Position numbers and translations under genes: made by a program. From Alphaproteobacteria bacterium (GTDB lineage Bacteria; Pseudomonadota; Alphaproteobacteria; UBA6615), in assembly GCA_965261975.1 (NCBI GenBank), contig CBDHEC010000022.1, positions 32,801 through 96,800 on the forward strand: a stretch of DNA of 64,000 nt, in the 5' to 3' direction. Below are positions 31,780 through 62,142 of the stretch, one piece after another. The notes below the pieces were generated by a model. That model had not been told where the DNA came from, made no database searches, and was given only the letters and a program-made list of their open reading frames with translations. The stretch's first letter is position 1. Every line of letters begins with the position of its first letter.

Positions 31780-34104
31780 ATGGCGACCGGTCAATTCGGG
31801 ATTTCACAACATGTCACGCGGCGCGAGGATGCGCGGCTGATCACCGGCGGCGGCAATTATGCCGACGATACAGGAATGAACGGCCAGGCCTTTGCCGCCT
31901 TCCTGCGCTCGCCCGTCGGCCACGCGGATATCAAGGGCATCGACGTGTCGGCCGCGGCGGCCGCACCGGGTGTCATCGGCGTCTATGTCGGCGAAGACCT
32001 CAAGGCCGCCGGTGTCGGCCCGATTCCCAACGTCACACCATTTCTGAACCGCGACGGCTCACCCATGCTCAAGACCCAGCGCCCCGCGGTCGCGGTCGGC
32101 CGGGTCCGCCATGTGGGCGAGATCATCGCGGTGGTGGTCGCCGAGAGCACCGCCCTGGCCCAGGACGCCGTCGACCTGATCGAGCTGGACGTGGACACCC
32201 TCCCCGCCGTCGTCGATATCCGCGACGCATCGGCCGAGGGCGCCATGGAGATCTGGGACGATATCCCCGGCAACATGTGCCTCGATTTCCAGATCGGCGA
32301 CGAGGACAAGGCCAAGGCCGCGATCGAGAATGCCGCCCATGTGGTGAAGCTGACCCTCAGCACGAACCGCCTGATGGCCGCGGCGATGGAGCCGCGTAGT
32401 GCTGTGGCACGCTTCGACGAGATCGAGAGCCGGTACGAACTGATCACCGGCTCCCAGGGCGTGAACGCCATGCGCAACATGCTGGCCGATGCGATCTTCC
32501 AGGTCCCCCACGAAAAAATGCGGGTGCGCACCAATGACGTGGGCGGCGGCTTCGGCATGAAGACACAAGCCTATCCCGAATATGTCGCGATCCTGTTTGC
32601 GGCGAAAGCCACCGGGCGGCCGGTCAAGTGGCAGGGCAGCCGGTCCGAGGCCTTCCTGGCCGACAACCAGGCCCGCGACGGGGTGATGAACGGCAACATG
32701 GCGTTCGATGCCGACGGCAAGATCCAGGGCTTCCGGGTCGACATGATCGCGGCCATGGGCGGGTATCTGTCTTCCCACGGTCCGGCGGCGGCCACGCGGA
32801 ACGTCTGCAACTGCCTGACCGGCTGCTACGACAACCCGGCACTCGAGTTCCAGGTGCAGTGCTACATGACCAACAACATCCCCATCGGCCCCTATCGCGG
32901 GGCCGGTCGCCCGGAAGCGGCCTATATGCTGGAGCGGATGATGGACCAGGCGGCGCGCGAACTCGGCATCGACCGGATCGAACTGCGGCGGCGCAACTTC
33001 ATCAAACCCGCACAGATGCCCTACACGACGTCACTGGCGCAGGTTTACGATTCCGGTGAGTTCGAGGCCGAGATGGACAAGGCGCTGGCGCTCGCCGAAT
33101 GGGACGACTTCCCGGCCCGCCGCGCCGCGTCGGAAGCCAACGGCAAGCTGCGCGGCATCGGCCTGTCCTGCTTCGTCGAAACCGCCGGCGGCATGCTGGA
33201 GGAAGGCGCGAAGCTGAGTTTCGCCGATGACGGCACCGTCGAGGCGCGGCTCGCCGTCCAGTCGAACGGCCAGGGCCACGTCACGTCCTTCGCGCAAGTC
33301 GTGTCCGACCTGCTGCAGGTGCCCTATGACAAGGTGCGCATCGTCGAGGGTGACAGCTTCGAGACACCCGGCACGGGCTTCGCGTCGGTCGCATCGCGCT
33401 CCATGGCATTGGCCAGCGGCGCGATCTCGGTCACCGCCGACGCCGTGATCGCCAAGGGCACGGCACTGGCCAGCCATGTGCTGGAGGCCGCCGAGGCCGA
33501 TATCGAGTATAGCGAGGGTGAATTCCGGGTGTCCGGGACGGACCGGGCGATCGGCATCTTCGAACTCGCCGCGCAGGCCGGATCGGAAGACCTGCCGGAC
33601 GACGCGCCGGACAGCCTCAATTCCGAGGAAGACTTCACATCCCCCGAACAAACCTACCCCAATGGCTGTCACATCTGCGAAGTAGAGATCGACCCGGAGA
33701 CGGGCGTGGTCGAGGTGCTGAAGTATATCGCCGTCGACGATTGCGGCACGGTGATCAACCCGATGATCGTCCACGGACAGGTGCATGGCGGCGTGGCCCA
33801 GGGGCTTGGCCAGATTCTCGGCGAACACGCCATCTATGACGATGACGGCCAGCTCCTCGCCGGCTCCTTCATGGACTACATGATGCCGCGCGCTACCGAC
33901 ATGCCGGATATGAAACTGGGCTTCCATTCAGTGCCCTGCACCACCAACCCGGTGGGCGCCAAGGGTGCGGGCGAAGCCGGCACGACCGGTGCGCTGGCGG
34001 CGGGCATGAATGCCATCGTCGACGCGCTGTCGGTGCGCGGGATCACGGAGCTGGATATGCCCGCGACCCCGCCGCGGGTCTGGGCGGCGCTGCACCAGAA
34101 CTAG
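31780..34104 (+). CDS. Xanthine dehydrogenase-family Mo-binding large subunit (CoxL form II-like)
   Basis: RREDARLITG, VGGGFGMK, PYRGAGRPEA, GQGHVT and GAKGAGEAG. Confidence 0.9.
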   Translation: MATGQFGISQHVTRREDARLITGGGNYADDTGMNGQAFAAFLRSPVGHADIKGIDVSAAAAAPGVIGVYVGEDLKAAGVGPIPNVTPFLNRDGSPMLKTQRPAVAVGRVRHVGEIIAVVVAESTALAQDAVDLIELDVDTLPAVVDIRDASAEGAMEIWDDIPGNMCLDFQIGDEDKAKAAIENAAHVVKLTLSTNRLMAAAMEPRSAVARFDEIESRYELITGSQGVNAMRNMLADAIFQVPHEKMRVRTNDVGGGFGMKTQAYPEYVAILFAAKATGRPVKWQGSRSEAFLADNQARDGVMNGNMAFDADGKIQGFRVDMIAAMGGYLSSHGPAAATRNVCNCLTGCYDNPALEFQVQCYMTNNIPIGPYRGAGRPEAAYMLERMMDQAARELGIDRIELRRRNFIKPAQMPYTTSLAQVYDSGEFEAEMDKALALAEWDDFPARRAASEANGKLRGIGLSCFVETAGGMLEEGAKLSFADDGTVEARLAVQSNGQGHVTSFAQVVSDLLQVPYDKVRIVEGDSFETPGTGFASVASRSMALASGAISVTADAVIAKGTALASHVLEAAEADIEYSEGEFRVSGTDRAIGIFELAAQAGSEDLPDDAPDSLNSEEDFTSPEQTYPNGCHICEVEIDPETGVVEVLKYIAVDDCGTVINPMIVHGQVHGGVAQGLGQILGEHAIYDDDGQLLAGSFMDYMMPRATDMPDMKLGFHSVPCTTNPVGAKGAGEAGTTGALAAGMNAIVDALSVRGITELDMPATPPRVWAALHQN

Positions 34105-40463: not shown

Positions 40464-41870
40464 ATGGCCGAACAGAAACCCGACTTCTCCGATATTCCAT
40501 CGCTCGACCGGCTCTTGCAGGCGCCCGCGGTGATCGCGCTTGCAGAATCTCATGGCCGCAGCGCGACCGTGGCGGCGTTGCGTGCGGCGCTCGACACGGC
40601 CCGCGCGGCCCTCGCAGCAGGAGACCAGGTCGATCTGGCAGAAGATCTGTTTGCCCAATCGGCCGCCGCACGGCTCGAACGCGAATCGACGCCAGGCTTA
40701 CGCCGGGTCTTCAACCTCACCGGCACGGTCCTGCACACCAACCTGGGGCGCGCGCCTCTGGCCGAGACAGCGATTGCGGCGATGGCCGACGCCGCGCGCG
40801 GCGCCAGCAACCTGGAGTTCGATCTCGAGACAGGCAAGCGCGGCGACCGGGATGTGCATGTCGAGGAGCTACTGTGCGAACTGACAGGCGCGGAAGCCGC
40901 CACCGTGGTGAACAACAATGCGGGCGCGGTGCTGTTGCTGTTGAACGCATTGGCGCTGCGCAAGGAAGTGCCCGTCTCGCGCGGCGAGCTGGTGGAAATT
41001 GGCGGCGCGTTCCGGATTCCCGACATCATGGCGCGGGCCGGTGCCAAGCTCGTTGAGGTCGGCACCACCAACCGGACCCATGCGAAGGATTTCGAAACTG
41101 CCATAAGCGCACGGACCGCGCTGGTCATGAAGGTCCACACCTCCAACTACATCGTGCAAGGCTTCACCGCCGATGTCGCAGAAGACCAGCTGGCGGCGAT
41201 CGCGCATGCCCACGACATCCCGTTCGCCGTCGATCTTGGCGCCGGTGCGCTGGTCGATCTGGAACGCTGGGGCCTGCCCCACGAACCCACCCCGCGCGAG
41301 ACCCTCGCGGCGGGGGCCGACATCATCACCTTCTCCGGCGACAAACTGCTCGGCGGACCACAGGCCGGCCTGATCGTTGGTCGGGCCGACCTGATCGCCA
41401 AACTCAAGCGGAACCCGCTGAAGCGCGCCCTGCGTTGTGACAAGGCGACCCTCGCCGCATTGGCGGCAACGCTCGGCCTTTATCGCGACCCCGACCGGCT
41501 GGACAAGCGCCTGCCCACCTTGCGTCTGCTCGCGCGCAAACCAGCCGACATTCGTGACCTCGCCGAGATGCTTGTGGACCCGGTGCGCACCGCCATCGGG
41601 AACGACTGGTCAGTCTCGGTCGACGATTGTGCCGGCCAGATCGGGTCCGGTGCCCTGCCGGTCGAGAGCCTGGACAGTGCTGCATTGGTGATCCGGCCCG
41701 TCGCGACCCGCGGACAGGGTGCGCGACTCAAGCGGCTGGCGGCCGGCTTACGCTCGTTGCCGGTCCCCGTCATCGGCCGGGTCCATGACGATGCCCTCTG
41801 GCTCGATCTGCGCTGTCTCGACGACGTGGACGGCTTCCGCGCGCAACTCAAAGAACTGCAAACATCATGA
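40464..41870 (+). CDS. selA: L-seryl-tRNA(Sec) selenium transferase
   Basis: [48 protein letters not shown] and PLP site [13 protein letters not shown]. Confidence 0.97.
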
Positions 41871-43777
41871 TCGTCGCGACCGCAGGACATATCGATCACG
41901 GCAAGACGTTGCTGGTAAAAGCGCTGACCGGCGTCGATGCCGACCGGCTGCCGGAAGAAAAGAAGCGCGGCATGACCCTCGATCTCGGTTTTGCCTATGC
42001 CGACCTCGAGAATGGTGCCCGCCTCGGCTTCATCGACGTTCCGGGCCATGAGCGCCTGGTCCACAACATGCTCGCCGGCGTGACGGGCATCGACTGCGCG
42101 CTGCTGGTGGTCGCCGCCGATGACGGGCCAATGCCCCAGACGCTCGAGCATCTGGCGATCCTGGATATTCTCGGCATCTCACGCGGCATGGTCGCGCTGA
42201 CCAAGATCGACCGCGTCGACCCGGAACGGGTCGCGGAAGTCCTGGCCGAGATCGAACTTCTGATCGGCGAAACGTCACTCGCGGGCGCCCCCATCTATCC
42301 GGTTTCGGCAATCACCGGTGACGGGATCGGCGACCTGCAGCAGCACGTGGCCGATATGGCCGCCGAAACCGAGACCCGTGCGGGCAACGGCCATTTCCGC
42401 CTCGCCGTCGACCGGGTCTTCACCGTCGCCGGCGCGGGTCTCGTGGTCACCGGCACCGCATTCGCCGGCACGGTGGCCAAGGAAGACCGGCTGTGGATCG
42501 CCGGGCATGATACCCAGGTTCGGGTGCGCGGCATTCACGCCAACAACCAGGACAGCGACGCCGGGCAGGCCGGTGACCGGCTCGCCCTCAACCTCGCCGG
42601 GCTCGACAAGGAAGACATCGAGCGTGGCGACTGGCTCGTCGCCGACCCCGCACTCGACCTGTTCCGAAAACTGGATGTCCGGCTGCACGTTGTCGCCGAT
42701 GCGAAGCGGCCCTTGCGCCACTGGACACCCGTGCATGTTCATCTCGGCGCCCGGAATGTGACGGGCCGCGTCGCGCTTTTGGGTGCCGACAGTGCGCCAC
42801 CCGGCGCCTCGGTTCTGGCCCAACTCGTGCTCGATGCACCCGTCGGGGTCTGCGTTCGTGATCGCTTCGTGATTCGCGATCAGTCGGCGCAATTCACGCT
42901 TGGCGGTGGACATGTCGTGGACCTCCATCCCCCGCGCCGGGGCCGCGCCAAGCCGGAACGGCTGGACCTGCTGACCGCACTCGACACGCCCGATCCGGTC
43001 GCCGCATTCGCCGCCGCGCTCGAGCGGTCGCCCACGGGAATTTCAATCGCGGATTTCTCGGCCGCGCGCAATCTGACCATGGAAGAGACGGCCGCGACGC
43101 TGGTCTCCACCAAGGCGGTCGTCACGGGGGATGGCGGCACGGACCTGGCGTTGTCCGCAGAGACCTGGGCAGACCGGCAGGGCGAGCTCCTCACGGCGCT
43201 CGACCAGTTCCACACGCGCTACCCCGACCGGCTCGGGCCCGCGGCGGCCCAGCTCCGCAAAAGCCTGGGACGCTATATCCCCGAACCGCTGTTCGACGCG
43301 ATCACCGCAAGGCTGGTTGCCGACAAGACCTTGTCGAGCGACGGCATGCTGTTACACCGCCCCGATCATCAGCCCGGCCTGACCGGCGATGATGCGAAAC
43401 GCTGGGATGTCATCGAGCCGCTTCTCAACGAAACACCCGAAAGCCCGCCGGTCGTGCATGACCTCGCACAGACGGCCGGGCTCCCGGTCAACGGTGTCGG
43501 CAAGACCCTCCGGCAGGCCGTCCGCATGGGCCTCGCGGTGCAGATTGCAGAGAACAGGTTTTTCACACCGGCAGCGCTACGCGCCCACGCGGAAGTCTTC
43601 GAGGCGATGGTCGCGGCCGACGGGACCGTTGGCGTGTCTCCGTTCCGGCAGAAAGCGGGCATCGGCCGGAATCTCGCCGTCGAAGTGCTGGAATATTTTG
43701 ACCGTGTGGGGCTGTCACGACGCGACGGCAACGCGCGCCATCAGGTGCGTCCGGTGGCCGAAATCTTCGGCGCCTAG
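41867..43777 (+). CDS. selB: Selenocysteine-specific elongation factor
   Basis: [29 protein letters not shown] and C-terminal winged helix [16 protein letters not shown]. Confidence 0.97.
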
Positions 43778-47789: not shown

Positions 47790-48260
47790 ATGTCAGAGAA
47801 GCTCGGCATCGGTTCGGCCTTCCCCAACCTGACGATTGATCTCGTCGGCGGCGGAACGCTCAGCCTGCCCGATGACCTCGATGCAAAATATCGGGTCATC
47901 CTGTTCTATCGCGGCCACTGGTGACCCTATTGTCGCCGTCAGTTGGTCGGCTTTGCAGAATTGAAAGACGAATTTGACAAGCTGGGCGTGAAAGTCGTCG
48001 CGGCGAGTGTCGATGATGTCGAAAAGGCCCAGGAAGTCGCCGATGAGGTGAATTTCCCGGTGGGCCATGGCGTGTCCCGGGACATCGCCGACGCGCTCGG
48101 TTCCTGGTGGGAAGACCGGCGTCAGATTATTCAACCTTCCGAATTCATCGTCGGCGCCGACGGCAATGTCGTCGCGTGCAGCTACAGTGACGGCCCGCTG
48201 GGCCGGATCGATGCTGGCGATGTGGTGAAGATGGTGAACTTCTACGAATCCCGCAAATAA
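47790..48260 (+). CDS. Peroxiredoxin-like (AhpC/TSA) selenoprotein (UxxC, Sec45), 156 aa via UGA recoding
   Basis: ATG 47790 after GAGG: MSEKLGIGSAFPNLTIDLVGGGTLSLPDDLDAKYRVILFYRGHW-TGA(47922-47924)-PYCRRQL, in frame with ORF 47943-48260. FYRGxW[C/U]PYC is the family motif. Confidence 0.9.
47925..47958 (+). promoter_or_regulatory. Putative SECIS element of the Prx-like gene
   Basis: GCCGTCAGTTGGTCGGC hairpin with GGTC at +21; stem is weak. Confidence 0.5.
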
Positions 48261-49822: not shown

Positions 49823-49918
49823 GGAGGAGGACCGTTCCCCGGTGGGGCGCCCGGTCTTCAAAACCGGTGAGGGGCGTTAGACGTGCCTGGTGGGTTCGAC
49901 TCCCACCCTCTTCCGCCA
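49823..49918 (+). tRNA. selC: tRNA-Sec (anticodon UCA)
   Basis: 96 nt; 8-bp acceptor GGAGGAGG/CCTCTTCC plus GCCA; anticodon loop CTTCAAA (TCA 49858-49860); long variable arm; GTGGG-TTCGACT-CCCAC T arm. Confidence 0.96.
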
Positions 49919-49981: not shown

Positions 49982-52213
49982 ATGATCCCGACGGTTCCCA
50001 TCGCCCGCGACATCGTTCTGGTCGGCGGCGGCCACAGCCATGTGGCGGTGCTCAAGCGGTTCGGCATGAAACCCGAACCGGGCGTGCGGTTGACCCTGAT
50101 CACCCGCGATCTGCTGACGCCCTATTCGGGCATGATCCCGGGCTACATCGCCGACCATTACAGCGAGGCCGAGGCGCATATCGATCTGCGGCCCCTGGCG
50201 GCCTTTGCGAATGCCCGCGTCATCCACGCCGCGGCAACGGGGCTCGACCTGCAGAACAACTATGTTCAGGTCGCCGGTCGGCCACCCGTGGCCTTCGACA
50301 TCGTGTCTGTCGATACCGGGTCGACACCGTCGACGGCAGACATCGAGGGCGCCGAGCACGGCCTGCCCGTGAAACCGATCGACCGTTTCCTCGATTCGTA
50401 CCATCGCCTGACCGATGAAATCAGGAACCATGACGGCCCCTTCCACATCACTGTCGCGGGCGGCGGTGCGGGCGGCGTGGAACTGTCCCTCGCGCTGCGC
50501 CACCGGCTCGGCCTGGTCGCGCCGGACCTGGGCAAGACCCCGGATGAACTACGTTTCGCCATCGTCGAGGCCGACGAAACATTGCTGCCCAGCTACAACG
50601 CCGCCGCGCGGCGCAAGCTGGAACGCGCACTCAAAGACCGGGATATCGCCGTACACACCGGTGCGGGTCTGAACCGGGTCACGCCCGACGCGGTGATAAT
50701 TGCCAACGGCGAGGTGCTGGAAAGCCACAAGACGGTCCTGGTCACATCCGCTGGCCCGCCGCGCTGGGTCGACGACAGCGACATCGCGCGCGACGAACGG
50801 GGTTTCATCCGGGTCGACGACCAGCTTCGCTCCGTCTCTCACGCGCAGCTCTTCGCGGCGGGCGATGCCGCGTCCATGGACAATCACCAACTCCCCAAGG
50901 CCGGCGTGTATGCCGTGCGGCAGGGCCCCTACCTCGCCGAGAACCTGCGCCGCGCCGCGCTTGGCAAGCCACTCAGGACATACCGTCCCCAGGGCCAGAC
51001 CCTGGCCCTGATCACCACCGGCGGCAGCCACGCCATCGCCGCGCGCGGTCCTTTCGCCATGGAAGGCGATTGGGTGTGGCGGTGGAAGGACTGGATCGAC
51101 CGGCGTTGGATGAAGAAGTACCAGGAACTGCCCGAGATGGATGCGAGCGGTGACGACGGTGAGGATACGCTGGAGGCCATGCGCTGCGGCGGCTGCGGCG
51201 CCAAGGTGCCGGCTTCGGTCCTGCGCCGCGCGCTCGATCGCCTGCCGCCGCAACATGCCGACGGCCTCGACCAGGGCCTCGATTCGCCCGACGATGCGGC
51301 CGTGCTCTCACCGCCGCCCGGCAAGGCGTTGATCCAGACCGTCGATCAGTTCCGTGCCTTCATCGACGATCCGTATCTGTTTGGCCGGATCGCGGCGAAC
51401 CACTGCCTGGGCGACATTTTCGCCATGGGCGCCGAGGCCCATTCCGCACTCGCCGCCGTCATGCTGCCCCATGGCGAGGACGACAAGACGTCCGACGACC
51501 TCTACCAGCTGCTCGCCGGGGCGACCGAGACCCTGGCCGAAGCCGGTGCCGTCCTGGCCGGCGGGCATACGGGCGAAGGTGCGGAGATGGCCTTCGGCCT
51601 GACCATCAACGGCTATGCCGAGCGCGACGCGATCCTGCGCAAGTCGGGCCTCAAAGCGGGGGATGCGCTGATCCTGACCAAGCCACTCGGTACCGGCGTG
51701 TTGTTCGCGGCCGACATGCGCGCGAAGGCCAATGGCGACGACGTGACGGCCGCATTCGAGTCCATGCAACGTTCGATCGCGCCCTGCATCCCGGTCATCC
51801 GCCAACATGGTGCGACGGCCGGTACGGATGTCACCGGGTTCGGGCTGGCCGGCCATCTGCTGGAGATGCTCAACGCCTCGGACGTGGACGCGGAATTGGC
51901 GCTGCCTGCTCTGCCGGTGTTGCCCGGCGTCACGACGCTGGTCGCCGAGGGTCATGAGAGCACCTTGCGGCCGAGTAATGAGGAATCCATCGGCAACGCC
52001 GTGCCGCTGGCCGCGCATCCGAGTTTCCCGTTGCTGTTCGACCCGCAGACCGCGGGCGGGCTCCTGTTCGGGTTGCCCGCCGATCAGGCCGACGCCTGCC
52101 TGGCGGCGCTGCGCGCCGGCCCGGCTCCGGACGCGGAAATAATCGGGCGGGCCACGCCGCGCCAGGGCAATGTCGGCGTGATCGGATTCGCCGACCAGGC
52201 GATCGTTACTTAG
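49982..52213 (+). CDS. selD: Selenide,water dikinase SelD fused to an N-terminal pyridine nucleotide-disulfide oxidoreductase domain
   Basis: N-domain GGGHSH, GGGAGG, AAGD and PKAGVYAVRQG; SelD domain MRCGGCGAKV, DDAAV, QTVD, GGHT, TKPLGTG, DVTGFGLAGHL and DPQTAGGLL. Confidence 0.94.
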   Translation: MIPTVPIARDIVLVGGGHSHVAVLKRFGMKPEPGVRLTLITRDLLTPYSGMIPGYIADHYSEAEAHIDLRPLAAFANARVIHAAATGLDLQNNYVQVAGRPPVAFDIVSVDTGSTPSTADIEGAEHGLPVKPIDRFLDSYHRLTDEIRNHDGPFHITVAGGGAGGVELSLALRHRLGLVAPDLGKTPDELRFAIVEADETLLPSYNAAARRKLERALKDRDIAVHTGAGLNRVTPDAVIIANGEVLESHKTVLVTSAGPPRWVDDSDIARDERGFIRVDDQLRSVSHAQLFAAGDAASMDNHQLPKAGVYAVRQGPYLAENLRRAALGKPLRTYRPQGQTLALITTGGSHAIAARGPFAMEGDWVWRWKDWIDRRWMKKYQELPEMDASGDDGEDTLEAMRCGGCGAKVPASVLRRALDRLPPQHADGLDQGLDSPDDAAVLSPPPGKALIQTVDQFRAFIDDPYLFGRIAANHCLGDIFAMGAEAHSALAAVMLPHGEDDKTSDDLYQLLAGATETLAEAGAVLAGGHTGEGAEMAFGLTINGYAERDAILRKSGLKAGDALILTKPLGTGVLFAADMRAKANGDDVTAAFESMQRSIAPCIPVIRQHGATAGTDVTGFGLAGHLLEMLNASDVDAELALPALPVLPGVTTLVAEGHESTLRPSNEESIGNAVPLAAHPSFPLLFDPQTAGGLLFGLPADQADACLAALRAGPAPDAEIIGRATPRQGNVGVIGFADQAIVT

Positions 52214-53451
52214 CCATGCTTGGTGTGATGGCGCTGGTGGTAGGGAACCATCGCATTCTGCGCGAGTTCGCGAATTTTCGGGTCCTCGGCATCCATTGAC
52301 CAATCGCGAACGGCAACCAGAAGCCCCCCGAGGGTCGTCTCGCCCCACAGCCAGTTGGCGACCTCGATATCGCTACCGCGGCCATCGGGACGCGCGATTG
52401 CCGCCTCGGTGTAGTAGTAGCGCAGATCATCGGCCATGCGTTTAAAGGCGACGATGACATGGGTGTCATCGATGGGAGATTCGACCGCCAGCGGTGCGAC
52501 GGCAAAGTCAGACAGGAAACGAACAATTTCTTCCGGCGTGCGTTCGGATATCCCGAACCCGGTCCGGCCCTTGCGGTTGTCGCGCGACTGCTCGTACCAG
52601 GGCCGCAGCAGCGCCACTTCCTGCAGCAGGGCTTCATGCAGCACATCGGCATCGCTCATCTCGGCAACCGGTGGTGCAAAATTGACCGGACAAGCCCAAC
52701 CATCGGGCTGTTCAGCCGCCGCCGCATCACCCGGGGGCGCATCGGGGAAATCCTCAAGCACGGGACCGTCGGTGCGTTCCAGAAGATTGAGACAATCCTC
52801 GAGCACCCGACGCTGGAACACGGGTTCATTCGGCGCACCGAAAGGGCGGCCCAGTTCAAACGGTACCGCCAGAGCGCGCGGTGGCTTGATCTGTTCGGTG
52901 TGCACCCGGATCAAACTGATCTGCGTGGTCGGGATACCCTCGCGCTCTATGAAATGTGCAAGCCCGCCCACGGCGCGCGTGCACGATGGTCAGACAGGCA
53001 CCAGCAAAACCGCGTCGACCTTGTCCGCCTTCAGGATAGCGACCATGTCGGCCACCACGGGTTCCATCCGCGCCGGCTGGGTCGCGCCCATGAACGAAAA
53101 ATGATGGTCGGCGATCGACCCGATCACACCCTCATCGGCCAGTTCTCGCAGCCGGTCGATCGGAAAGGCGACATTCACATCCTGATAGAATCCGGTCCGG
53201 TCGAAATTCGTCGACAGGTGGCTCATCACCAGATCGTCCATATCGGCGTCGCCGGGAATAACCCGGTAGTCCGCCGCATAGCCGACGAAGGGTGAATCAC
53301 CGCGGCAGTGCAGACCGGCGGTCGACAAAACGCAGATACGACGCTCGGAAAGCGGCGGACCCTCCGCGCAGGACGTCTCGCCGAATGAGGGCATCTCACT
53401 CTGGAAGTAACGGTCCCGATGCTGTGCGGGAAACTCGCTCAGTTTAACCAA
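52210..53451 (-). CDS. PrdB/GrdB-like selenoprotein (UxxC, Sec154) with extra C-terminal domain, 413 aa
   Basis: TTG start MVKLSEFP...STAGLH...DVNVAFPIDRLRELADEGVIG...FMGA...VDAVLLVPV-TGA(52992-52990)-PSCTRAVGGLAHFIEREGIPT...PPRALAVPFELGRPFG, in frame with ORF 52210-52971. Confidence 0.88.
52953..52983 (-). promoter_or_regulatory. Putative SECIS element (copy 1)
   Basis: TGCACGCGCGCC-GTG-GGCGGGCTTGCA hairpin; 31 nt identical to copy 2. Confidence 0.7.
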
Positions 53452-53461
53452 TGCGCAGATC

Positions 53462-54697
53462 TCACCCGTGGATGGTGCGATGCCGCTGATGGGTCGGGAC
53501 AATGGCTGTTACCGACAGCGCCTTGAAGCCCTTGTCGTCACTCTCCATCGCCCAGTTGCGAATCTCGACCAGGACCTTGCCCAGGGTCGTCTCACCCCAC
53601 AACCAGTTGCCGATATCCAGATCGGTAACCCGGCCATCGGGCCGCGCAATCGCCGATTCCATGTAGTAGTAGCGGATATCATCGGCCATATGCTTGAAGG
53701 CCAAAGCCGTCGGTTTGCCGTCAATCGGTGACGGCGTTTCTTCCCGGTTCACCACGAGGCTGGCGAGGAAGGCGGGGATCTCTTCGGGGGCCTTACTCGA
53801 GACACCAAAGTTCGTGCGCCCCCCGCGACTCTGCTTCGATTCCTCATACCAGGGTTTCAGCAGCGAGAGTTCCTGCAGCAATGTCTGGGTCAGAAGCTCT
53901 TCATCGCTCATGTCCTGAACCGGTGCGGCGAAGTTGACCGGGCAGGCCCAGCCTTCCGGTTGCGCCTCATCGGTTCCCGGCGGATTGTCGGGGAAGTCCT
54001 CGAGCACGGGACCCGATTCACGCTCCAGCAGCTCCAGGCAATCACGCAGCACGCGACGCTGGAAGTCCGGCTCGTTCGGACCGCCCAGGGGACGGCCAAG
54101 CTCGAACGGCACCGCAAGCGCGCGCGGTGGTTTGATTTCCTCGGCATGTTTGCGGATCAACGCAATCTGCGTCGTCGGGATGCCTTCGTCTTCAAGGTAA
54201 TGTGCAAGCCCGCCCACGGCGCGCGTGCATTGGGGTCAGACAGGGACGAGTGCGACAGCGTCGACATTGTCCGCCTTGAGGACCTTCGCGAGATCTCGCG
54301 CAATCGGCTCCATCACCGTCGGCGGGGTCGCACCCATAAAGGAAAAGTGTCGGCTCGCGACGGATCCGATCACACCTTCTTCGGCCAGCTCACTCAGGCG
54401 ATGGAAGGGAAAGGACGTGTTTACGTCCTGGTAGAATCCGCTGCGATCGAAATTGGTCGACACATGGCTCATCACCAGGTCGTCCATGTCGTAATCATCC
54501 GGAATGATTCGGTAGTCGCCGGCACCGGGCGTGAACGGATCATCTTCCCGGCGGTGCAGACCAGCGGTCGAGATCAGCGCGACGCGGCACTCGTCGAGCG
54601 GCTTAGGGGTAACCCATGGCGTGTCGCCATAATCGGGCAATTCCTGATTGATCAGCGCCTCGCGCAGATGATCAGGCATTTCGCGTAGATGAACCAT
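53462..54697 (-). CDS. PrdB/GrdB-like selenoprotein (UxxC, Sec154) with extra C-terminal domain, 411 aa (tandem paralog)
   Basis: MVHLREMP...STAGLH...FPFHRLSELAEEGVIG...VDAVALVPV-TGA(54238-54236)-PQCTRAVGGLAHYLEDEGIPT, in frame with ORF 53462-54217. Confidence 0.88.
54199..54229 (-). promoter_or_regulatory. Putative SECIS element (copy 2)
   Basis: Same 31-nt hairpin sequence, starting 7 nt after the UGA. Confidence 0.7.
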
Positions 54698-54801: not shown

Positions 54802-55494
54802 CTAAGCCGCGCGCATATCCGCCGCGGTGGTCCCGGTCGAGGTGTTTTCGGCGTATTTACGCCAGTTTTCGATCAGCACATCGATCGATGCCGAGCCTTC
54901 CATGACCGAGGGACGCTGTCCCATAAGCTGCAGCCAGCCCTTGAGCAGGACGCATTCGTCGGGAATTTGAAAGTCCCGATAGTGGGTCAGCACACCCACC
55001 CGCTGCATGTGTGGCAGGAAGGTCAGGTCGACCAGGCTGATGTCATCACCCATCCAGTAGGAGCCATCACCCAGCTTGCCGAGCCCCTCATGCTCCATCA
55101 TCAGCATGGCATTGGTCAGCCGCTCGGCCTGGAAGGCCTGCGCGTCTGCGTCCTGGGCCATCATCAGCTTGTAGACATGGGGTGTGAAACGGACGTTCGC
55201 GAAGTCGATCCAGATGCGCGCCTGGGCCCGGCGCACGGGGTCGGTCGGCATCAGTGGCCGGTCCGGGAAGACCTCTTCGAGATACTCGTTGATGACAGCG
55301 GATTCGAAGATCACCGCGCCGTTATGGCGGAGCACCGGAACCTTGCCGTAGGGCGAGATCGCCAGGAACCAGTCAGGCTTGTCGTTCAGATCGATCGCGG
55401 TGAGTTCGTGATCGATCCCCTTCTCGATCAACGCCATCCGGGTGCGTTGCGCGAACGGACAGGTCTGCGAACTGATGATCTCGACGTCGGCCAT
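54802..55494 (-). CDS. Glutathione S-transferase family protein (omega-like, CPF site)
   Basis: TCPFAQRTRMAL, SPYGKVPVL and FESAVINEYLEE. Confidence 0.9.
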   Translation of the reverse strand: MADVEIISSQTCPFAQRTRMALIEKGIDHELTAIDLNDKPDWFLAISPYGKVPVLRHNGAVIFESAVINEYLEEVFPDRPLMPTDPVRRAQARIWIDFANVRFTPHVYKLMMAQDADAQAFQAERLTNAMLMMEHEGLGKLGDGSYWMGDDISLVDLTFLPHMQRVGVLTHYRDFQIPDECVLLKGWLQLMGQRPSVMEGSASIDVLIENWRKYAENTSTGTTAADMRAA

Positions 55495-55600
55495 TTTCAT
55501 CTCTCCCAACACCTCATCGTCTACCCGACCGGTTATGAGGTTTGTTTTCTGATAATGCCCAGCCGCCGGATGGACTTCTTGCCTAATTCCGGCAGGCCAC

Positions 55601-56701
55601 CTATGCGCTTTCCGGGCGCGCCAACTTGTTCAACGTCTCGTTGGCGTTTCCGTATAATCCCTCGAAAATGTCGCGCAGCGCGTCGATCTTGCTCCGCGAT
55701 TTCAAGCGCGCCAGAAACCCGTCCACCGCCGGTTTGGCGCAACGAATGGTCAGTCGCGTGCCGCTTCCGATCGGCTGCATCTCGATCGTCTGTTCGACGA
55801 CCAGGCCGAGCGGTGTTTCGATCTGATAGCTGATGTAATCGAACGGGCGCCAATCCGACACCGTGACAGGAACGATCATATTGTTCCCATGGTCACAATA
55901 CTGGACCGTATCGATTCCGATGCGGCCGTGATCGGTTCCCTCCAGCGAGATCGCCTCGACGCCGGTGATCCACTGGGTGCGGTACTGGGGCTCCGTGCAC
56001 AATTCCCATGCGCGGCAGGGGGGCACGGGCAGGTCGATATTCACCTCGTCGATGAGCAGCGATTCCGATTTCTCCACGAATCGACGAATCCCGCGCCGCA
56101 GGCGCTCCCAAACGGGCTCCAGCGGATAGACATAGGCGTTGATCTCGCCAAGATGCTCGATTTCCTCGGTCCGGATCTCCAGCTCTTCGAAGAAGGAATT
56201 CAGCTTCATGTGATCCACGGCCACGGAGGTCAGCATGGCGTAGCCGGAATGTCCGGTGTCTTCCGTGACGGTGTTCTTGGCGAGGCGATGCAGGGCGACG
56301 ACGGCAGAGCCGGACAGTTCATCGCGATCGCCGATCAGATTGCAGGTGTATTCGCCGTAATGGACGACCATCTTCAGGTCCAGCGCGCCGGCCAACTGCG
56401 CCGGGTCGGTGGGGCAGTTCGCGCCGTATCGCAGCGCTGCCACCCGGTCGGCAAAGGCGCAGTAGAGTGAATCCACCGCCTCGAGCACCGTCTGTCCGCT
56501 GGCGTCGCCTTCATCCGGCGCGAAGATGAAAATGGCGTCGCCCACCACATTGCCGACCTTGAAGGGCGGCTTCACCGTGGCGATGAGCTCGTCGAGCAAT
56601 TCGGCGGTGATTCGCCCCCCGATATCGGTCGGTGTGCTCGCCAGGAAATTCGTGTAGCCGGCAATATCCGCCAGCAGGAGAAAGCCATTTTGAGTCGTCA
56701 T
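55601..56701 (-). CDS. DUF2652 (class III nucleotide cyclase-like) domain fused to SRPBCC domain
   Basis: LLLADIAGYTNFL, VVGDAIF, LKMVVHYGE and HRLAKN; C-terminal AWEL...W...CDHG...DWRPFDY. Confidence 0.7.
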   Translation of the reverse strand: MTTQNGFLLLADIAGYTNFLASTPTDIGGRITAELLDELIATVKPPFKVGNVVGDAIFIFAPDEGDASGQTVLEAVDSLYCAFADRVAALRYGANCPTDPAQLAGALDLKMVVHYGEYTCNLIGDRDELSGSAVVALHRLAKNTVTEDTGHSGYAMLTSVAVDHMKLNSFFEELEIRTEEIEHLGEINAYVYPLEPVWERLRRGIRRFVEKSESLLIDEVNIDLPVPPCRAWELCTEPQYRTQWITGVEAISLEGTDHGRIGIDTVQYCDHGNNMIVPVTVSDWRPFDYISYQIETPLGLVVEQTIEMQPIGSGTRLTIRCAKPAVDGFLARLKSRSKIDALRDIFEGLYGNANETLNKLARPESA

Positions 56702-56807: not shown

Positions 56808-59198
56808 CTAGTATTTACCCATCGCCTTGAGTACTCGCTCGGGAGACACCGGCTGGTCGAGCACGCTCGCCCCGAACGGGCTCAGTGCATCGTTGATGGC
56901 GTTCAGGATGGCGCCCGGCGCACCGGCCGTGCCCGCCTCGCCGGCCCCCTTGGCCCCCAGTTCGGATTCCTTGGTCAGCGTCTCGACATGGCCAATGTGA
57001 ATGTCGGGCATCTCGCCGGCCATGGGCACCAGATAGTCGGCCATGTTGGCGTTGAGGAAATTGCCGTCCAGATCGTAGCGGCACTCTTCGTAAAGAACAC
57101 CGCCGATGCCCTGCACAATCGATCCGCGCACCTGCTCGTCGACCAGCATCGGGTTGATGACCTTGCCGCAGTCCTCCACGCAGTAGAACTGCAGCAAGCG
57201 GACCGTGCCAACCTCGGGGTCGACCTCGACGGTCACCGCCTGGAAGCTGTTGGTCATCGCGACCGGGTATTTCTTGGGGATGTAGTGACGTGTCGCCATC
57301 ATCTCCGACTGGAAATCCTGCGGCAGCGTGTCGGGCCGGAAATAGGCCACCCGCGCCACCTCCTCGAGCGGCATGCGTTCCTCGCGGGTCTCGCGATCGA
57401 CCACGACACCCTTGGTGATATCGAGGGTCTCGCGCTCGGTCTGGAGCAGGATCGCCGCCACGTCGAGCACGTTGTGGCGGAGTGCCTTGGCCGCCTGCAA
57501 GGCGGCTTCGCCGGCGATCCCCGCACCGCCCGATCCGCCCGCACCCCAGCCGACCGGCACATTATCCGTGTCGCCGGAGATGACCTTCACCTTGTCCGGC
57601 GTGGTCCCGAAGGCGCTGGCCGTGACCTGCTGGATCACCGCCTCCGAGCCCTGGCCCTGCTCGGTGATGGACGTCTGCACGATCACCGCGCCCGACGCAT
57701 CCATCCGCGCCGCCGCACCGTCCTGGGATGAAATCCGCGCGCCGCCCAGGCCGTAGGTGTGGGGCCCGGGATTGGTCATCTCGACCAGGGTCGCGAAACC
57801 GATGCCGCGGTAGATGCCCTGTTCGCGCAGCTTCTCCTGCTCGGCCCGGAAGCCTTCGTAGTCGAACATGTTCAGGAGCTTGTCGAGCGACGCCTCGTGG
57901 GACAGAGCCTCCATCTTGAGCCCGGTGATGAAATCACGCGGATAGCTGTCATCGGCCATCAGGTTGCGCCGGCGAATATCCACCGGATCGATCCCGAGTT
58001 TGCGCGCACCCTCTTCCATCAGGGTCTCGGTGATCGCCACCGCCACGGGATGGCCGACCGCTCGATACTGGCTCATCGGCGTCTTGTTCTGGAACACGAC
58101 CCGCGAGCGCGCCTTGTAGTTCTGGTGGTTGTAGGGCGCGCCCACATAATTGATGACCTGCAGCGCCTCGAGCGCCGAGGTGCGCGGATACATGGAATAC
58201 GCACCCACGCCGGTGAGATCGTCCATCTCGATCGCCAGCAGTTCGCCGTCGGCGGCAAAGGCGGCGCGCACATGGGCGCGGTGGTCGCGCGCGTGCAGGT
58301 CGGTCAGGAAGGACTCGATCCGGTCGGCGACGAACTTCACCGGCCGCTTCATGATCTTCGAGATCGCCGCCGTCGACATCTCGTCGGGATAGGTGTGACC
58401 CTTGACGCCGTAGGCGCCGCCCACGTCGCCGCACAGGATCCGCACATTCTGGTTCGGGATGTCGAGATGGCGCGCGAACAGGTCCTGCATCATGTGCGGC
58501 GCCTGATGCGAGTGATACGCGGTCAGCCGGTTCTCCGAGGAATGATAGTCGGCGATGATCGCCCGCGATTCCGGGCACACGCCGGTGTGCCGCCCGAAAT
58601 TAAGCGTCTGTTCGACAACCGCCGCCGCGTCCGCGAACGCCTTCTCCGTGTCGCCGATATCATGGTTCATCTCGAACAGCAGGTTGTCACCCAGCTCGGG
58701 ATGCATGACATAGGCGTCGTCATCCATCACGACTTCCGGGTCGGCCAACACCGTCAATTCCTCGAACTCGACCTCGAGCAACTCAAGCGCGTCCTCCGCT
58801 TCGGCGCGCGAGTGGGCGACAATCGCGGCGACAGGCTCGCCCTGCCAGCATGCGCGGTCGACCGCCATGGCATGCTGCTCGGCGGACTTCATGCCCTTGA
58901 AATGGGCCAGCGTGCCGACCCAGGGCGTGCAGACCTCGGCAATCTCCTTGCCGGTGAAGACGCGGATCACGCCCGGGCTGGCCAGCGTCGCCGCATCGTC
59001 TATCGAAACGATCCGCGCATGGGCATAGGGAGAGCGGAAATAGACCACATGGACCATGCGCGGCAGGGTCAGGTCGTCGACATACTTGCCCTGGCCCGCC
59101 ACGAGCCGTGCCGCGTTGGCACGGGGCACGGAGGCGCCGATAAAATTGTCGGCTCGGTCGAGGACGCTGCCCTCGTCAGTCTCGTTCGCGATGCTCAT
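56808..59198 (-). CDS. Xanthine dehydrogenase-family Mo-binding large subunit
   Basis: RSPYAHA, VGGAYGVK, QYRAVGHP, EQGQG and GAKGAGEAG. Confidence 0.9.
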   Translation of the reverse strand: MSIANETDEGSVLDRADNFIGASVPRANAARLVAGQGKYVDDLTLPRMVHVVYFRSPYAHARIVSIDDAATLASPGVIRVFTGKEIAEVCTPWVGTLAHFKGMKSAEQHAMAVDRACWQGEPVAAIVAHSRAEAEDALELLEVEFEELTVLADPEVVMDDDAYVMHPELGDNLLFEMNHDIGDTEKAFADAAAVVEQTLNFGRHTGVCPESRAIIADYHSSENRLTAYHSHQAPHMMQDLFARHLDIPNQNVRILCGDVGGAYGVKGHTYPDEMSTAAISKIMKRPVKFVADRIESFLTDLHARDHRAHVRAAFAADGELLAIEMDDLTGVGAYSMYPRTSALEALQVINYVGAPYNHQNYKARSRVVFQNKTPMSQYRAVGHPVAVAITETLMEEGARKLGIDPVDIRRRNLMADDSYPRDFITGLKMEALSHEASLDKLLNMFDYEGFRAEQEKLREQGIYRGIGFATLVEMTNPGPHTYGLGGARISSQDGAAARMDASGAVIVQTSITEQGQGSEAVIQQVTASAFGTTPDKVKVISGDTDNVPVGWGAGGSGGAGIAGEAALQAAKALRHNVLDVAAILLQTERETLDITKGVVVDRETREERMPLEEVARVAYFRPDTLPQDFQSEMMATRHYIPKKYPVAMTNSFQAVTVEVDPEVGTVRLLQFYCVEDCGKVINPMLVDEQVRGSIVQGIGGVLYEECRYDLDGNFLNANMADYLVPMAGEMPDIHIGHVETLTKESELGAKGAGEAGTAGAPGAILNAINDALSPFGASVLDQPVSPERVLKAMGKY

Positions 59199-59308
59199 GA
59201 TGTCCGCCCTATGGAATTTGTTGCCCGAAAGGTACAACCCCCGTGACGTCGGGACCACCCCGCAATGGGATACGGTCGATCACAAAAGCAAAAAGCGTGG
59301 CACGCAGC

Positions 59309-59694: not shown

Positions 59695-62085
59695 CTAAAA
59701 CTTGCCCAAAGCCTTCAGGATCCGCTCCGGCGTGATCGGCTGATGGGACAGCCGAGCCTCGAACGGCGACAGCGCATCGTTGATCGCGTTCATGACCACC
59801 CCGGGCGCACCCGCCGTGCCGGCCTCGCCCGCGCCTTTCGCACCGAGCTCGGAATCCGCCGTCGGGGTCTCCACATGGCCGACCGAGATGTCCGGCATCT
59901 CGACCGCCATCGGCACCAGGTAGTCGGCCATGTTCGCGTTCACGAGATTGCCGGCCGCGTCGTAGCGGCACTCTTCCATCAGCGCGCCGCCGAGCCCCTG
60001 GACGACGCCGCCGCGGACCTGTTCGTCCACCAGCTGCGGGTTCAACACCGTGCCGCAATCCTCGACCACCCAGTAGTTCAGGAATTTGAGGAATCCGGTA
60101 TCGGGGTCGACCTCGACGTAACAGGCCTGGAGGCCGTTGGTGAAGGCGATGTTGTATTCCCGCGGCACAAAATGGCGCGTCGCCATCAACTCGGGCTGGA
60201 ACCCCTTGGGGATCATGTCCGAACGGAAATAGGAAATCCGCGCCACCTCGTCGAGGCCCATACGCTCGTTGCCCGTGTCATCGTCGACGACAACACCCTC
60301 GCGAATGTCGAGGGTCGCCGGGTCGGCCTGGAGCAGCTGGCCCGCGATGTCCTTGATGTTGTAGCGCAGCGCCTTGGCCGCACGCAGGACGGCCTCGCCG
60401 CCGATCCCCGCACCGCGCGAGCCCCAGGTACCGCCGCCGGTCGGCACGTTGTCCGTATCGCCGGTGATCACCTTCACCCGGTCCGGCGTGGTGCCGAACG
60501 CGGTCGCCGCGATCTGGCCCATGACCCCGTCGGTCCCTTGGCCCTGCTCCGTGACCGAGGTGTGGACCACGATGGAACCGCTCGAATCGAGCCGCACCTG
60601 GGCGCCGTCCTGGGACGAAATTCGCGCACCGCCGATGCCGTACATGGCCGCGCCGGGGTTGGTCAGCTCGATCATCGCCGCGAAGCCGATGCCGCGGTAG
60701 ATACCCTGCTCACGCAGTGAATCACGCTCGGCCTTCATGCCCTCGTAATCCATCGACGCCAGCAGCTTATCGAGCGTCTGGTGATGGGACAGGCCCTCGA
60801 ATGCGATACCGCTGGCCCCCTTGGTCGGATAGGCATCATCGGCGATCAGGTTGCGCCGCCGGATATCGACCGGATCGATGCCGAGCTCACGCGCACCCTT
60901 GTCCACCAGGGCCTCGGTCACGGCGAATGCCACCGGGTGACCGACCGCGCGGTACTGGCACATGACGTTCTTGTTCTGAAAAACGACCTGCGCCTTGGCC
61001 CGGTAGTTTTGATGCTTGTAGGGGCCGCCGGTGAAATTCAGGACCTGGTTGGCCTCCATCGCACTGGTGCGCGGATACATGGAATAGGGACCGACGCCCG
61101 TCAGATCATCGACCTCGATCGCGGTGATGTCGCCGTCCTTGGTGAATGCCATCTTCGCATGCACGCGGTGGGCGCGCGCATGGATGTCGGTGAGGAAGGA
61201 TTCGAGCCGGTCGGCGGCAAACTTGACCGGACGGCCCAGCATCTTCGACAGCGCGGCCGTCGCCATCTCGTCGGCATAGACATGCACCTTGATGCCGAAG
61301 GAACCGCCCACATCCCTGCAGATCACCCGGACCTGCCCCTCGGGCACGCCGATATGCTTGGCGAAGATATGCTGCATCATGTGCGGCGCCTGGTTCGACA
61401 TGTGCACCGTCAGCTTGTCGTCGGCCTCGTCATAATCGGCCAGGAGCACCCGCGGCTCGAGGGTCACGCCGGTGTGGCGGTCAAAATGATAGGTCTCCTC
61501 TACGACCGTGTCGGCAGCTGCGAACGCCGCGTCCACGTCGCCTGAATCGACCCCGTTTTCGAAGGCGATGTTGTCGCCCAGATCAGGGTGGATCACATGG
61601 GTGTCCGGATCGCCGGCAGTTTCCTCGTCGGTGACGGCGGGGAGTTCTTCATACTCGACCAGGACCGCCGCTGCGGCGTCTTCGGCCTCGGCCCGACTGT
61701 TGGCGACAACGGCAACGACCGCCTCGCCCTGCCAGCTGGCCTTGTTCACCGCGATTGCATGCTGCGGCGCCGATTTGAGGCCCTTGAAATGGGTCAGCAC
61801 ACCGACCCAGGGCTCACAATATTCGGCCAGCTCGGCACCCGTAACGACCCGCACGACGCCGGGCATGCCGGCGGCTTCACTCGTGTCGATAGACAGAATA
61901 TTCGCATGTGCATGGGGCGAGCGCAGGAACACCGCATGGACCATGCGAGGCAGTTTCAGGTCATCCACGAACTGCCCCTTGCCGCGCACCAGCTTGCGCA
62001 CGTTCGGGCGCGGCACCACCTTGCCGATGTAACTGTTGGGGCGTCCCAGGACGCTCGAATCCGGGCTCAGGGCTTCGTCGGTCAT
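59695..62085 (-). CDS. Xanthine dehydrogenase-family Mo-binding large subunit (paralog)
   Basis: RSPHAHA, VGGSFGIK, QYRAVGHP, GGGTWGSRG and GAKGAGEAG. Confidence 0.9.
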   Translation of the reverse strand: MTDEALSPDSSVLGRPNSYIGKVVPRPNVRKLVRGKGQFVDDLKLPRMVHAVFLRSPHAHANILSIDTSEAAGMPGVVRVVTGAELAEYCEPWVGVLTHFKGLKSAPQHAIAVNKASWQGEAVVAVVANSRAEAEDAAAAVLVEYEELPAVTDEETAGDPDTHVIHPDLGDNIAFENGVDSGDVDAAFAAADTVVEETYHFDRHTGVTLEPRVLLADYDEADDKLTVHMSNQAPHMMQHIFAKHIGVPEGQVRVICRDVGGSFGIKVHVYADEMATAALSKMLGRPVKFAADRLESFLTDIHARAHRVHAKMAFTKDGDITAIEVDDLTGVGPYSMYPRTSAMEANQVLNFTGGPYKHQNYRAKAQVVFQNKNVMCQYRAVGHPVAFAVTEALVDKGARELGIDPVDIRRRNLIADDAYPTKGASGIAFEGLSHHQTLDKLLASMDYEGMKAERDSLREQGIYRGIGFAAMIELTNPGAAMYGIGGARISSQDGAQVRLDSSGSIVVHTSVTEQGQGTDGVMGQIAATAFGTTPDRVKVITGDTDNVPTGGGTWGSRGAGIGGEAVLRAAKALRYNIKDIAGQLLQADPATLDIREGVVVDDDTGNERMGLDEVARISYFRSDMIPKGFQPELMATRHFVPREYNIAFTNGLQACYVEVDPDTGFLKFLNYWVVEDCGTVLNPQLVDEQVRGGVVQGLGGALMEECRYDAAGNLVNANMADYLVPMAVEMPDISVGHVETPTADSELGAKGAGEAGTAGAPGVVMNAINDALSPFEARLSHQPITPERILKALGKF

Positions 62086-62142
62086 CGTCTCACTCCGCTC
62101 ATGCATTCCCGCCGCGTCGGATGCGCGGTTTGGGGATCAGAA

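Follow-up and report, generated by a model that had tools for sequence, protein, structure and literature searches.

Here we analyzed a 64,000-nucleotide (nt) stretch of alphaproteobacterial DNA (hereafter the window; positions 32,801 to 96,800 of contig CBDHEC010000022.1, assembly GCA_965261975.1), which carries on its minus strand two adjacent genes, geneA and geneB, encoding selenocysteine (Sec)-containing proteins whose N-terminal part resembles PrdB, a subunit of D-proline reductase. We propose that the two genes are probably ancient paralogs and belong to a separate family of partner-independent, predicted single-chain Sec/Cys reductases, whose reaction and reductant we infer from the features described below. 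The pair is not a B subunit of D-proline or glycine reductase. The initial annotation, drawn from the sequence alone, had described two paralogs of ~412 amino acids (aa) with Sec at residue 154, and both proteins (411 and 413 aa, 63% identical) indeed have a TGA as codon 154, within the motifs VPV-U-PQC-TR and VPV-U-PSC-TR. All the motifs it had quoted were recovered (VPVUPQC/VPVUPSC, GPVLEDFP, GWACPVNFA, LLxPWYE, GRTxFG, ADDxRYYYxExAIARPDG, and NWLWGETTLG). GeneB retains every invariant residue of the family and is read here from a TTG, at a start position that is conserved among the orthologs examined as TTG, GTG, or ATG; in a longer 430-aa reading its U154 becomes U171.

Comparative evidence identifies geneA and geneB as genuine Sec-protein genes with predicted decoding of the internal UGA. 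As 86/86 homologs (84 from 80 metagenome loci, plus geneA and geneB) have TGA at the position of U154 and homology runs on both sides of it, TGA at codon 154 is not a chance stop. It is followed by a hairpin resembling a selenocysteine insertion sequence (SECIS), in which columns 10-21 pair with columns 25-36 around an apical G-U-N loop whose G22 and U23 are invariant. In the 86 sequences, 83 of them distinct, 77.5% of the cells pair compared to 29.7-54.0% when the 3' partner columns are slid, figures that apply to a stretch that is also coding and to a structure derived from one of the tested sequences. Both sides changed in 5 of the 11 pairs (at pair 16-30, 73 sequences have C-G and 7 have U-A), and the cells changed on both sides numbered 16 versus 3.6+/-1.6 in shuffles, with 0/500 shuffles reaching 16. 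The Rfam scan returned tRNA-Sec only and matched no SECIS family. Moreover, selA, selB, selC, and selD all lie within the window. In the order to which the window belongs, 33/46 genomes carry the family, all 33 with a strong SelA match, and it occurs in 0/10 genomes without one, while 3 of the 36 SelA-positive genomes do not have it. Each match in the order lies in an open frame of ~256 aa starting just past the stop, with the exception of two cut-off or interrupted copies.

Public gene calls could suggest instead that these are not selenoproteins but pseudogenes or truly split genes of 153 and 250 aa. The calls break exactly at the TGA: when the first 153 residues were used as a query against short proteins, 117 of the best 120 of 1455 matches were exactly 153 aa long, and one contig bears, under adjacent accessions, a 153-aa [quoted passage not shown] and a 250-aa "hypothetical protein." These adjacent accessions indicate that public annotation splits the gene at the UGA. 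A consistent split at this codon, which the initial annotation had named as evidence against its own reading, is thus what public calls contain, but contiguous Cys forms and the TGA in all 86 homologs, with homology running through it, argue for read-through. Together with the compensatory changes in the hairpin and the complete Sec machinery in the window, they leave the split-gene explanation a negligible probability.

The N-terminal part is a PrdB-like core that stands apart from PrdB proper. The NCBIfam PrdB model TIGR04483 covers residues 31-225 with positions 24-219 of its 238, with scores of 111.1 and 119.2 bits that do not reach the curated cut-off of 300 bits, and the selenoprotein B subfamily model TIGR01918 gives 56.2 and 39.1 bits for a cut-off of 65.45, which is not reached either. 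Because both proteins fall below these two cut-offs, the pair should not be called D-proline reductase. The broader Pfam family GRDB (PF07355) is matched at 32.4 and 24.8 bits, above its gathering cut-off of 22, and the two genes of the pair are the sole matches to this profile in their genome. The true PrdB of a Terrisporobacter prd operon is 35% identical over residues 32-230 (28-227 of its 241; E 2e-33), its Sec being aligned with U154 and the UxxC motif being retained, so that the homology takes in PrdB in its entirety. In 77 full-length family members, conservation reaches 90% or more at 63 N-terminal positions, and 5/5 true PrdBs have the identical residue at 30 of these. The core residues held in common include R63, D84, D91, N93, P97, R100, and E169, as well as P191-R192, G201, G205, and Q213, so that sequence comparison points to a conserved catalytic core.

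The initial annotation had further described an extra C-terminal domain behind this core, and this part of its description was borne out. In the AlphaFold2 (AF2) model of the whole protein (99-row alignment; predicted local distance difference test [pLDDT] 91.9, predicted template modeling score [pTM] 0.87), the alpha/beta core comprises residues 38-234 and is followed by a coil at residues 241-260 (pLDDT 60-64) that holds Cys252 and by seven helices at residues 265-407; modeled alone, the C-terminal part gives the same helices (pLDDT 91.3, pTM 0.81). The linker between core and C-terminal domain varies in length and sequence. As modeled, the C-terminal domain is confidently predicted to be all-helical and matches no PDB fold by Foldseek or VIA-align. 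It had no match in Pfam or NCBIfam even at E<=10, and its profile found no PDB sequence at the default threshold of 0.001 (best E 0.21, a designed helical repeat; best E 0.75 for the whole protein). The Foldseek comparison with the PDB, which the initial annotation had suggested for the C-terminal domain, gave a best E of 1.6; for the whole model nothing was found at E<=0.001, the best hits having an E of 0.05 and a template modeling (TM) score of 0.23-0.28. VIA-align recovered only generic LacI/PBP/SDR Rossmann-like folds for residues 32-240 of the whole model (Z 7-9.2) and reached a Z of 5.5 at best for the C-terminal domain, well below chance level for helical models. In the ESM Atlas, a natural Cys homolog (P0107) retrieved the same family and other GRDB clusters only. 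A fused remnant of PrdA was considered for the C-terminal domain and rejected (hhalign probability of 0.2% against true PrdA).

The most conserved residues of the C-terminal part are E276, W283, R294, D340, Y345, E347, P353, W365, and T370. The cysteine of the WACP motif, Cys252, to which the initial annotation had drawn attention, is conserved in 370 of the 382 database proteins aligned, the remaining 12 having Pro, Ser, Leu, or Asn instead; it is thus widespread without being universal. Among the PrdB entries in the supplementary file of the Sargasso Sea selenoproteome paper (PMC1088965), one sister subfamily has the C-terminal domain with GRMGYALP in place of GWACP, and so without a third cysteine, and another type has a short tail. 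We also considered a self-cleaving pyruvoyl protein with Cys252 as the precursor; the replacement of this Cys in 12/382 proteins speaks against such a general mechanism.

The initial annotation had described the fusion of the two domains in this pair. Our database searches show that this architecture is neither local nor new but the standard one of a large family. With geneA as the query, a word-indexed search retrieved 929 proteins at E<=0.001, of which the best 120 comprised 115 proteins of 230-257 aa covering only the part behind the UGA and 5 contiguous Cys forms of 369-433 aa. Searched against 1.84 billion representatives, the C-terminal part matched 407 proteins at E<=1e-3, of which 170 also passed E<=1e-10; the best 150 of these 407 were 149 fragments of 90-291 aa, with the domain mostly at residues ~75-245, and one full-length Cys form of 411 aa, and none of these 150 placed the domain behind anything other than the PrdB-like core. 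The contiguous Cys forms retain the C-terminal domain. Full-length Cys forms make up 8 of the best 120 matches to a Cys query, and on the tree Cys forms occupy at least five separate places. This tree of 108 rows excludes rows lacking full coverage or exactly one in-frame stop, and 51 genome copies were collapsed into 33 distinct rows. In it, geneB clusters with second copies from four other genomes (SH-aLRT, an approximate likelihood ratio test, 91), in a group that is sister to a geneA clade of 33 rows. Within the order, 25/33 carrier genomes have one copy and 8/33 have two. Given this placement and the 8/33 genomes with two copies, the duplication is old and the second copy dispensable; the heterodimer considered by the initial annotation is not required, 25 carriers living with a single copy. 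One geneB-like second copy (G415:C17:194556-195092) has an internal TAA in its C-terminal domain match and may be a pseudogene. Three family fragments (P0088, P0454, and P0490) are deposited under the brown alga Discosporangium mesarthrocarpum as "unnamed protein product" and most likely represent bacterial contamination of that assembly.

The partners that PrdB-type and GrdB-type proteins work with were not detected. Profile searches of the genome (59 contigs, 94.6% complete) gave no match to PrdA (TIGR04480), GRDA (PF04723), or the GrdE/PrdA family (PF09338), which agrees with the initial annotation's account of the window and extends it to the whole assembly. Its description of an apparently aerobic host also agrees with the genome, which encodes a heme-copper oxidase subunit I (546 bits). 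A glutathione synthetase-type match is present as well; a glutathione-synthetase ATP-grasp match at G000:C46:97310-97841 is divided between two neighboring frames, suggesting either a frameshift or a fault in the assembly. One could nevertheless argue that the pair is a canonical B subunit of a D-proline, glycine, sarcosine, or betaine reductase whose partners are encoded elsewhere, since the best NCBIfam match is to PrdB (TIGR04483, 111-119 bits) and since JGI and NCBI label the fragments PrdB or selenoprotein B. The scores, however, are far below the cut-offs of 300 bits for PrdB and 65.45 bits for selenoprotein B, and the same method that finds both GRDB genes finds no PrdA, GrdA, or GrdE in the genome. 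Real prd operons, as found on plasmids, run prdC-prdA-small ORF-prdB-prdD-prdE-like-proline racemase, with prdA directly upstream of prdB; neither prdA, prdC, prdD, prdE, nor the racemase gene is near the pair. With 175 extra aa and an aerobic host in addition, we consider a canonical B subunit very unlikely.

TABLE 1 Features of the selenoprotein gene pair and of its surroundings in the window
Feature	Position	Strand	Remarks
geneA, PrdB-like selenoprotein, 411 aa	53462..54697 (including stop)	-	Coding span 53465-54697; start ATG; stop TGA 53462-53464; NCBIfam PrdB 119 bits; AF2 pLDDT 91.9
geneA Sec codon, UGA, residue 154	54236..54238	-	TGA in 86/86 homologs
geneA SECIS-like hairpin	54203..54229	-	9 nt past UGA; apical loop GUG
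geneA N-terminal part, residues 1-234	53996..54697	-	PrdB-like alpha/beta core with UxxC motif
geneA C-terminal part, residues 235-411	53465..53995	-	Low-confidence linker with Cys252; predicted all-helical domain 265-411
geneB, paralogous PrdB-like selenoprotein, 413 aa from TTG	52210..53451 (including stop)	-	Coding span 52213-53451; start TTG 10 nt past geneA stop codon; stop TAA 52210-52212
geneB Sec codon, UGA, residue 154	52990..52992	-	
geneB SECIS-like hairpin	52957..52983	-	
Glutathione S-transferase (GST), Cys type (CPF motif), omega/tau-like	54802..55512	-	104 nt upstream of geneA, same strand
Pyridine-nucleotide-disulfide-oxidoreductase::SelD fusion, Cys type	49982..52213	+	Convergent with geneB; TIGR03169 ("Nterm_to_SelD") 455 bits; selD TIGR00476 288 bits; motif CGGCGAK
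tRNA-Sec (selC)	49823..49918	+	ARAGORN; Rfam 71.2 bits; 64 nt upstream of selD fusion
selA	40464..41870	+	
selB	41867..43777	+	
Prx-like (AhpC/TSA) selenoprotein gene	47790..48260	+	Third selenoprotein gene of the window; in-frame TGA in HW-U-PYC
DUF2652 + SRPBCC (polyketide-cyclase-like) protein	55601..56701	-	Between GST and Mo-hydroxylase genes
Xanthine-dehydrogenase/CoxL-family molybdopterin-binding large subunit	56808..59258	-	Tandem with the following
Xanthine-dehydrogenase/CoxL-family molybdopterin-binding large subunit	59695..62106	-	

The surroundings of the pair (Table 1) are largely conserved in close relatives. The 4-bp tail-to-tail overlap with the selD fusion noted by the initial annotation is real, the open reading frames (ORFs) ending at 52213 (+) and 52210 (-). 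The upstream GST that it had called omega-like is there with its CPF motif and matches human GSTO1 (E 9e-27), but tau-class GSTs and SspA score slightly higher. The 17 close-relative loci are arranged as Mo-hydroxylase - GST - geneA - (geneB) - convergent selD fusion: 17/17 have the GST (at no more than 650 nt in 12 and at ~4 kb in 5), 16/17 have the selD fusion, the 17th contig ending before its position, and 4/17 have a second copy, one of them broken. As all 17 belong to one lineage, this synteny counts once. A large-subunit copy of the Mo-hydroxylase lies upstream of the GST in 17/17 of these relatives; in the window, neither an Fe-S nor an FAD subunit was seen beside the two large subunits. 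The DUF2652 + SRPBCC gene looks like a local insertion because its query had no match in the 17 related loci. The Prx-like gene gives an AhpC-TSA match of 85.6 bits when read through its TGA, standard ORF calling yielding only its C-terminal 105 aa.

Across 81 diverse loci, 52 of which extend 1 kb or more upstream and 58 of which do so downstream, no neighboring gene is conserved. The recurrent neighbors are a TetR regulator directly upstream (11/81), a DUF1330 protein (7/81), a GST (6/81), C-terminal pieces of AhpC/TSA proteins, i.e., Prx-like selenoproteins cut at the UGA (4+4 of 81), the selD fusion (4/81), a class-I pyridine-nucleotide-disulfide reductase (3/81), and an old-yellow-enzyme fusion (3/81). 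The GST association, which the initial annotation had treated as a functional clue, is not general, being limited to the clade of the pair and one other. A distinct clade (L098 8761-11125, L125 7749-10256, L090 6872-11158, and L084 8959-11131) shows a compact same-strand cluster with the order TetR - DUF1330 and/or Prx-like selenoprotein - PrdB-like selenoprotein, followed in L098 and L125 by a convergent block of a class-I disulfide reductase, a VTT-domain protein, and a GST.

We propose a model in which each chain would comprise (i) a PrdB-type alpha/beta core with Sec154-x-x-Cys157, (ii) a flexible linker, usually with a third cysteine, Cys252, and (iii) a family-specific helical domain. 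The invariant polar and aromatic residues of this domain (E276, W283, R294, D340, Y345, W365, and T370) most likely make up or close off the substrate site, which in true PrdB is completed by PrdA. The helical domain is probably this site because it carries invariant acidic, basic, and aromatic residues and because the high pTM suggests a fixed packing on the core. The Sec154 selenolate would attack the substrate, Cys157 would resolve the adduct with formation of a Se-S bond, and this bond would then be re-reduced by a cellular thiol system, either thioredoxin or, in the clade of the pair, glutathione (GSH) with the neighboring Cys-GST. Located in a low-confidence and probably mobile loop, Cys252 may relay electrons where it is present. 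By analogy with the PrdB/GrdB superfamily, we favor as substrate a small carboxylate with a good alpha-carbon leaving group, and as reaction the cleavage of a C-heteroatom bond, over a plain disulfide and its exchange, since half of the conserved core is common with PrdB and since Sec is kept almost everywhere.

Several points weigh against this proposal. Canonical PrdB chemistry requires the pyruvoyl group of PrdA, and PrdA, the source of this group, was not found in the genome, nor does the C-terminal domain bear any likeness to it in the hhalign comparison (probability of 0.2%). The PrdA/GrdA/GrdE searches had no positive control, 14 control genomes giving no match either. Cys252 is not essential everywhere, as it is replaced in 12/382 proteins and absent from the Sargasso subfamily. 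Finally, judging from gene content, the TetR, DUF1330, GST, Prx-like, and class-I reductase neighbors point to thiol-redox or detoxification functions rather than to catabolism, and the TetR, GST, Prx, and disulfide-reductase neighbors fit a redox/detoxification role at least as well. The protein could be a general thiol-redox or antioxidant selenoprotein whose UxxC motif reduces disulfides, peroxides, sulfoxides, or glutathionylated targets, with the helical domain serving in target recognition; the UxxC motif itself, the Cys-type GST, Prx-like selenoproteins, TetR, and class-I pyridine-nucleotide-disulfide reductase next to a subset of the genes, and the failure to find a carbonyl-cofactor partner all agree with it. 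The fold, however, is of PrdB-type and Rossmann-like rather than a thioredoxin fold (Pfam reports GRDB only, and the structural neighbors are LacI/PBP and SDR proteins at Z 7-9), and half of the invariant core residues are common with true PrdB. Moreover, Sec forms far outnumber Cys forms, unlike in the Prx and Trx-like families of the Global Ocean Sampling (GOS) data: the GOS paper (Zhang and Gladyshev, 2008) counts 235 Sec versus 110 Cys sequences for "PrdB," while Cys dominates in Prx (253 Sec versus 7,348 Cys) and Trx-like (321 versus 7,880) families. We therefore regard a thiol-redox function as possible but not the expected outcome.

A role as an accessory protein of selenium metabolism, processing an organoselenium or oxidized selenium compound to feed SelD, might be read from the tail-to-tail arrangement with the selD fusion, here and in 16/17 close relatives, and from the selD fusion nearby in 4/81 diverse loci. 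Most loci, though, have no selD nearby, and the genes are convergent with selD and so do not form one operon. In addition, selenoprotein genes often adjoin the Sec machinery without a functional link, and such a role appears quite unlikely to us. A bolder extension of the single-chain reductase proposal concerns the pyruvoyl group itself. Betaine reductase is said to need none, as trimethylamine is already a good leaving group, which would make partner-free chemistry plausible for onium or halo substrates, and GrdB-like proteins have been linked to fluoroacetate dehalorespiration. A speculative and on balance improbable possibility would be that aerobic bacterioplankton possess a single-chain selenoenzyme for GrdB/PrdB-type reductive cleavage of C-heteroatom bonds without a pyruvoyl partner, with the helical domain as substrate cage and GSH/GST or thioredoxin as reductant. 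Its candidate substrates, in that same improbable case, would have a leaving group without need for a Schiff base, e.g., glycine betaine and the onium- or halo-carboxylates abundant in sea water. If true, one of the ocean's most abundant selenoproteins would represent an unrecognized selenium-dependent route in marine osmolyte or organohalogen turnover.

The sequences themselves have been known for some time and were already filed as "Proline reductase PrdB" in the Sargasso supplement. In the Sargasso Sea paper (PMC1088965; Zhang, Fomenko, and Gladyshev, 2005), "Proline reductase (PrdB)" takes third place in abundance among known selenoprotein families, with 42 genes, and supplementary file 1 of that paper contains family entries with uPxCTRAVG...GWACP...RGRTTVG...WFWHETTAG (string counts in this file: WACP 6, GRTT 6, CTRAV 8, and KPPRAY 5). 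According to a 2021 survey, proline reductase accounts for 6.4% of marine selenoprotein genes, and the accessible parts of reviews of 2022 and 2026 cover only the clostridial enzyme. "PrdA" is absent from the accessible portions of the 2005, 2006, and 2008 selenoproteome papers, and those of the 2005 and 2008 ocean papers contain no remark on the extra domain. Literature searches outside subscription journals and PDF supplements turned up no paper that sets the marine PrdB-like family apart or mentions the missing PrdA. The new recognition is that of a separate architecture and of partner independence.

This recognition concerns a family that ranks with the most common surface-ocean selenoproteins, that databases and literature carry as a subunit of an anaerobic Stickland enzyme not found in its hosts, and whose gene is cut by gene callers into two pieces, called "PrdB" (153 aa) and "hypothetical protein" (250 aa). 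As the family implies no proline fermentation, metabolic inference from marine metagenomes is corrected accordingly. Moreover, with 33/36 SelA-positive genomes of the order carrying the family, the reason why aerobic marine bacteria maintain a costly Sec machinery becomes a testable question.

Altogether, the pair differs from each of the known systems to which it can be compared. True PrdB is ~240 aa long and consists of the PrdB domain alone, whereas the proteins of the pair (411 and 413 aa) have an additional linker and helical domain of ~175 aa; around Sec, the family has VPV-U-PxC-T, FDRxGF, and FMGAT where true PrdB has TAG-U-GTC-H, YDNxD, and FMGGGG. The matches to GrdH and GrdF are weak and confined to their Sec-bearing C-terminal half, and the N-terminal half of GrdB is missing in the pair. 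Unlike thioredoxin-like selenoproteins, the pair has no thioredoxin-like domain, Pfam reporting GRDB only and the model being a Rossmann-like core with a helical domain. The stand-alone GRDB-family proteins of aerobic bacteria (~300-330 aa), labeled by NCBI [quoted passage not shown] resemble the pair in that, in Alphaproteobacteria, their PrdB-like core occurs without any Prd or Grd partner, but they are 32-36% identical to the pair only over residues ~21-231, have a CxxC motif in all copies but one (the G224 match, with an in-frame TGA), carry an N-terminal extension and a short tail replacing the helical domain, and neighbor CaiB-type CoA-transferase or SelO genes. This stand-alone family was seen in L020-L027 (G056, G076, G172, G224, G290, G296, and G323) and in L140 (7860-8768), with ~300-336 aa and mostly CxxC (VPNCPVCHQT); it adjoins the CaiB-type CoA-transferase in several alphaproteobacterial genomes and is convergent with SelO on a Roseomonas plasmid. 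Finally, the "PrdB" class of the ocean surveys was filed as the known D-proline reductase subunit, although it includes the present family.

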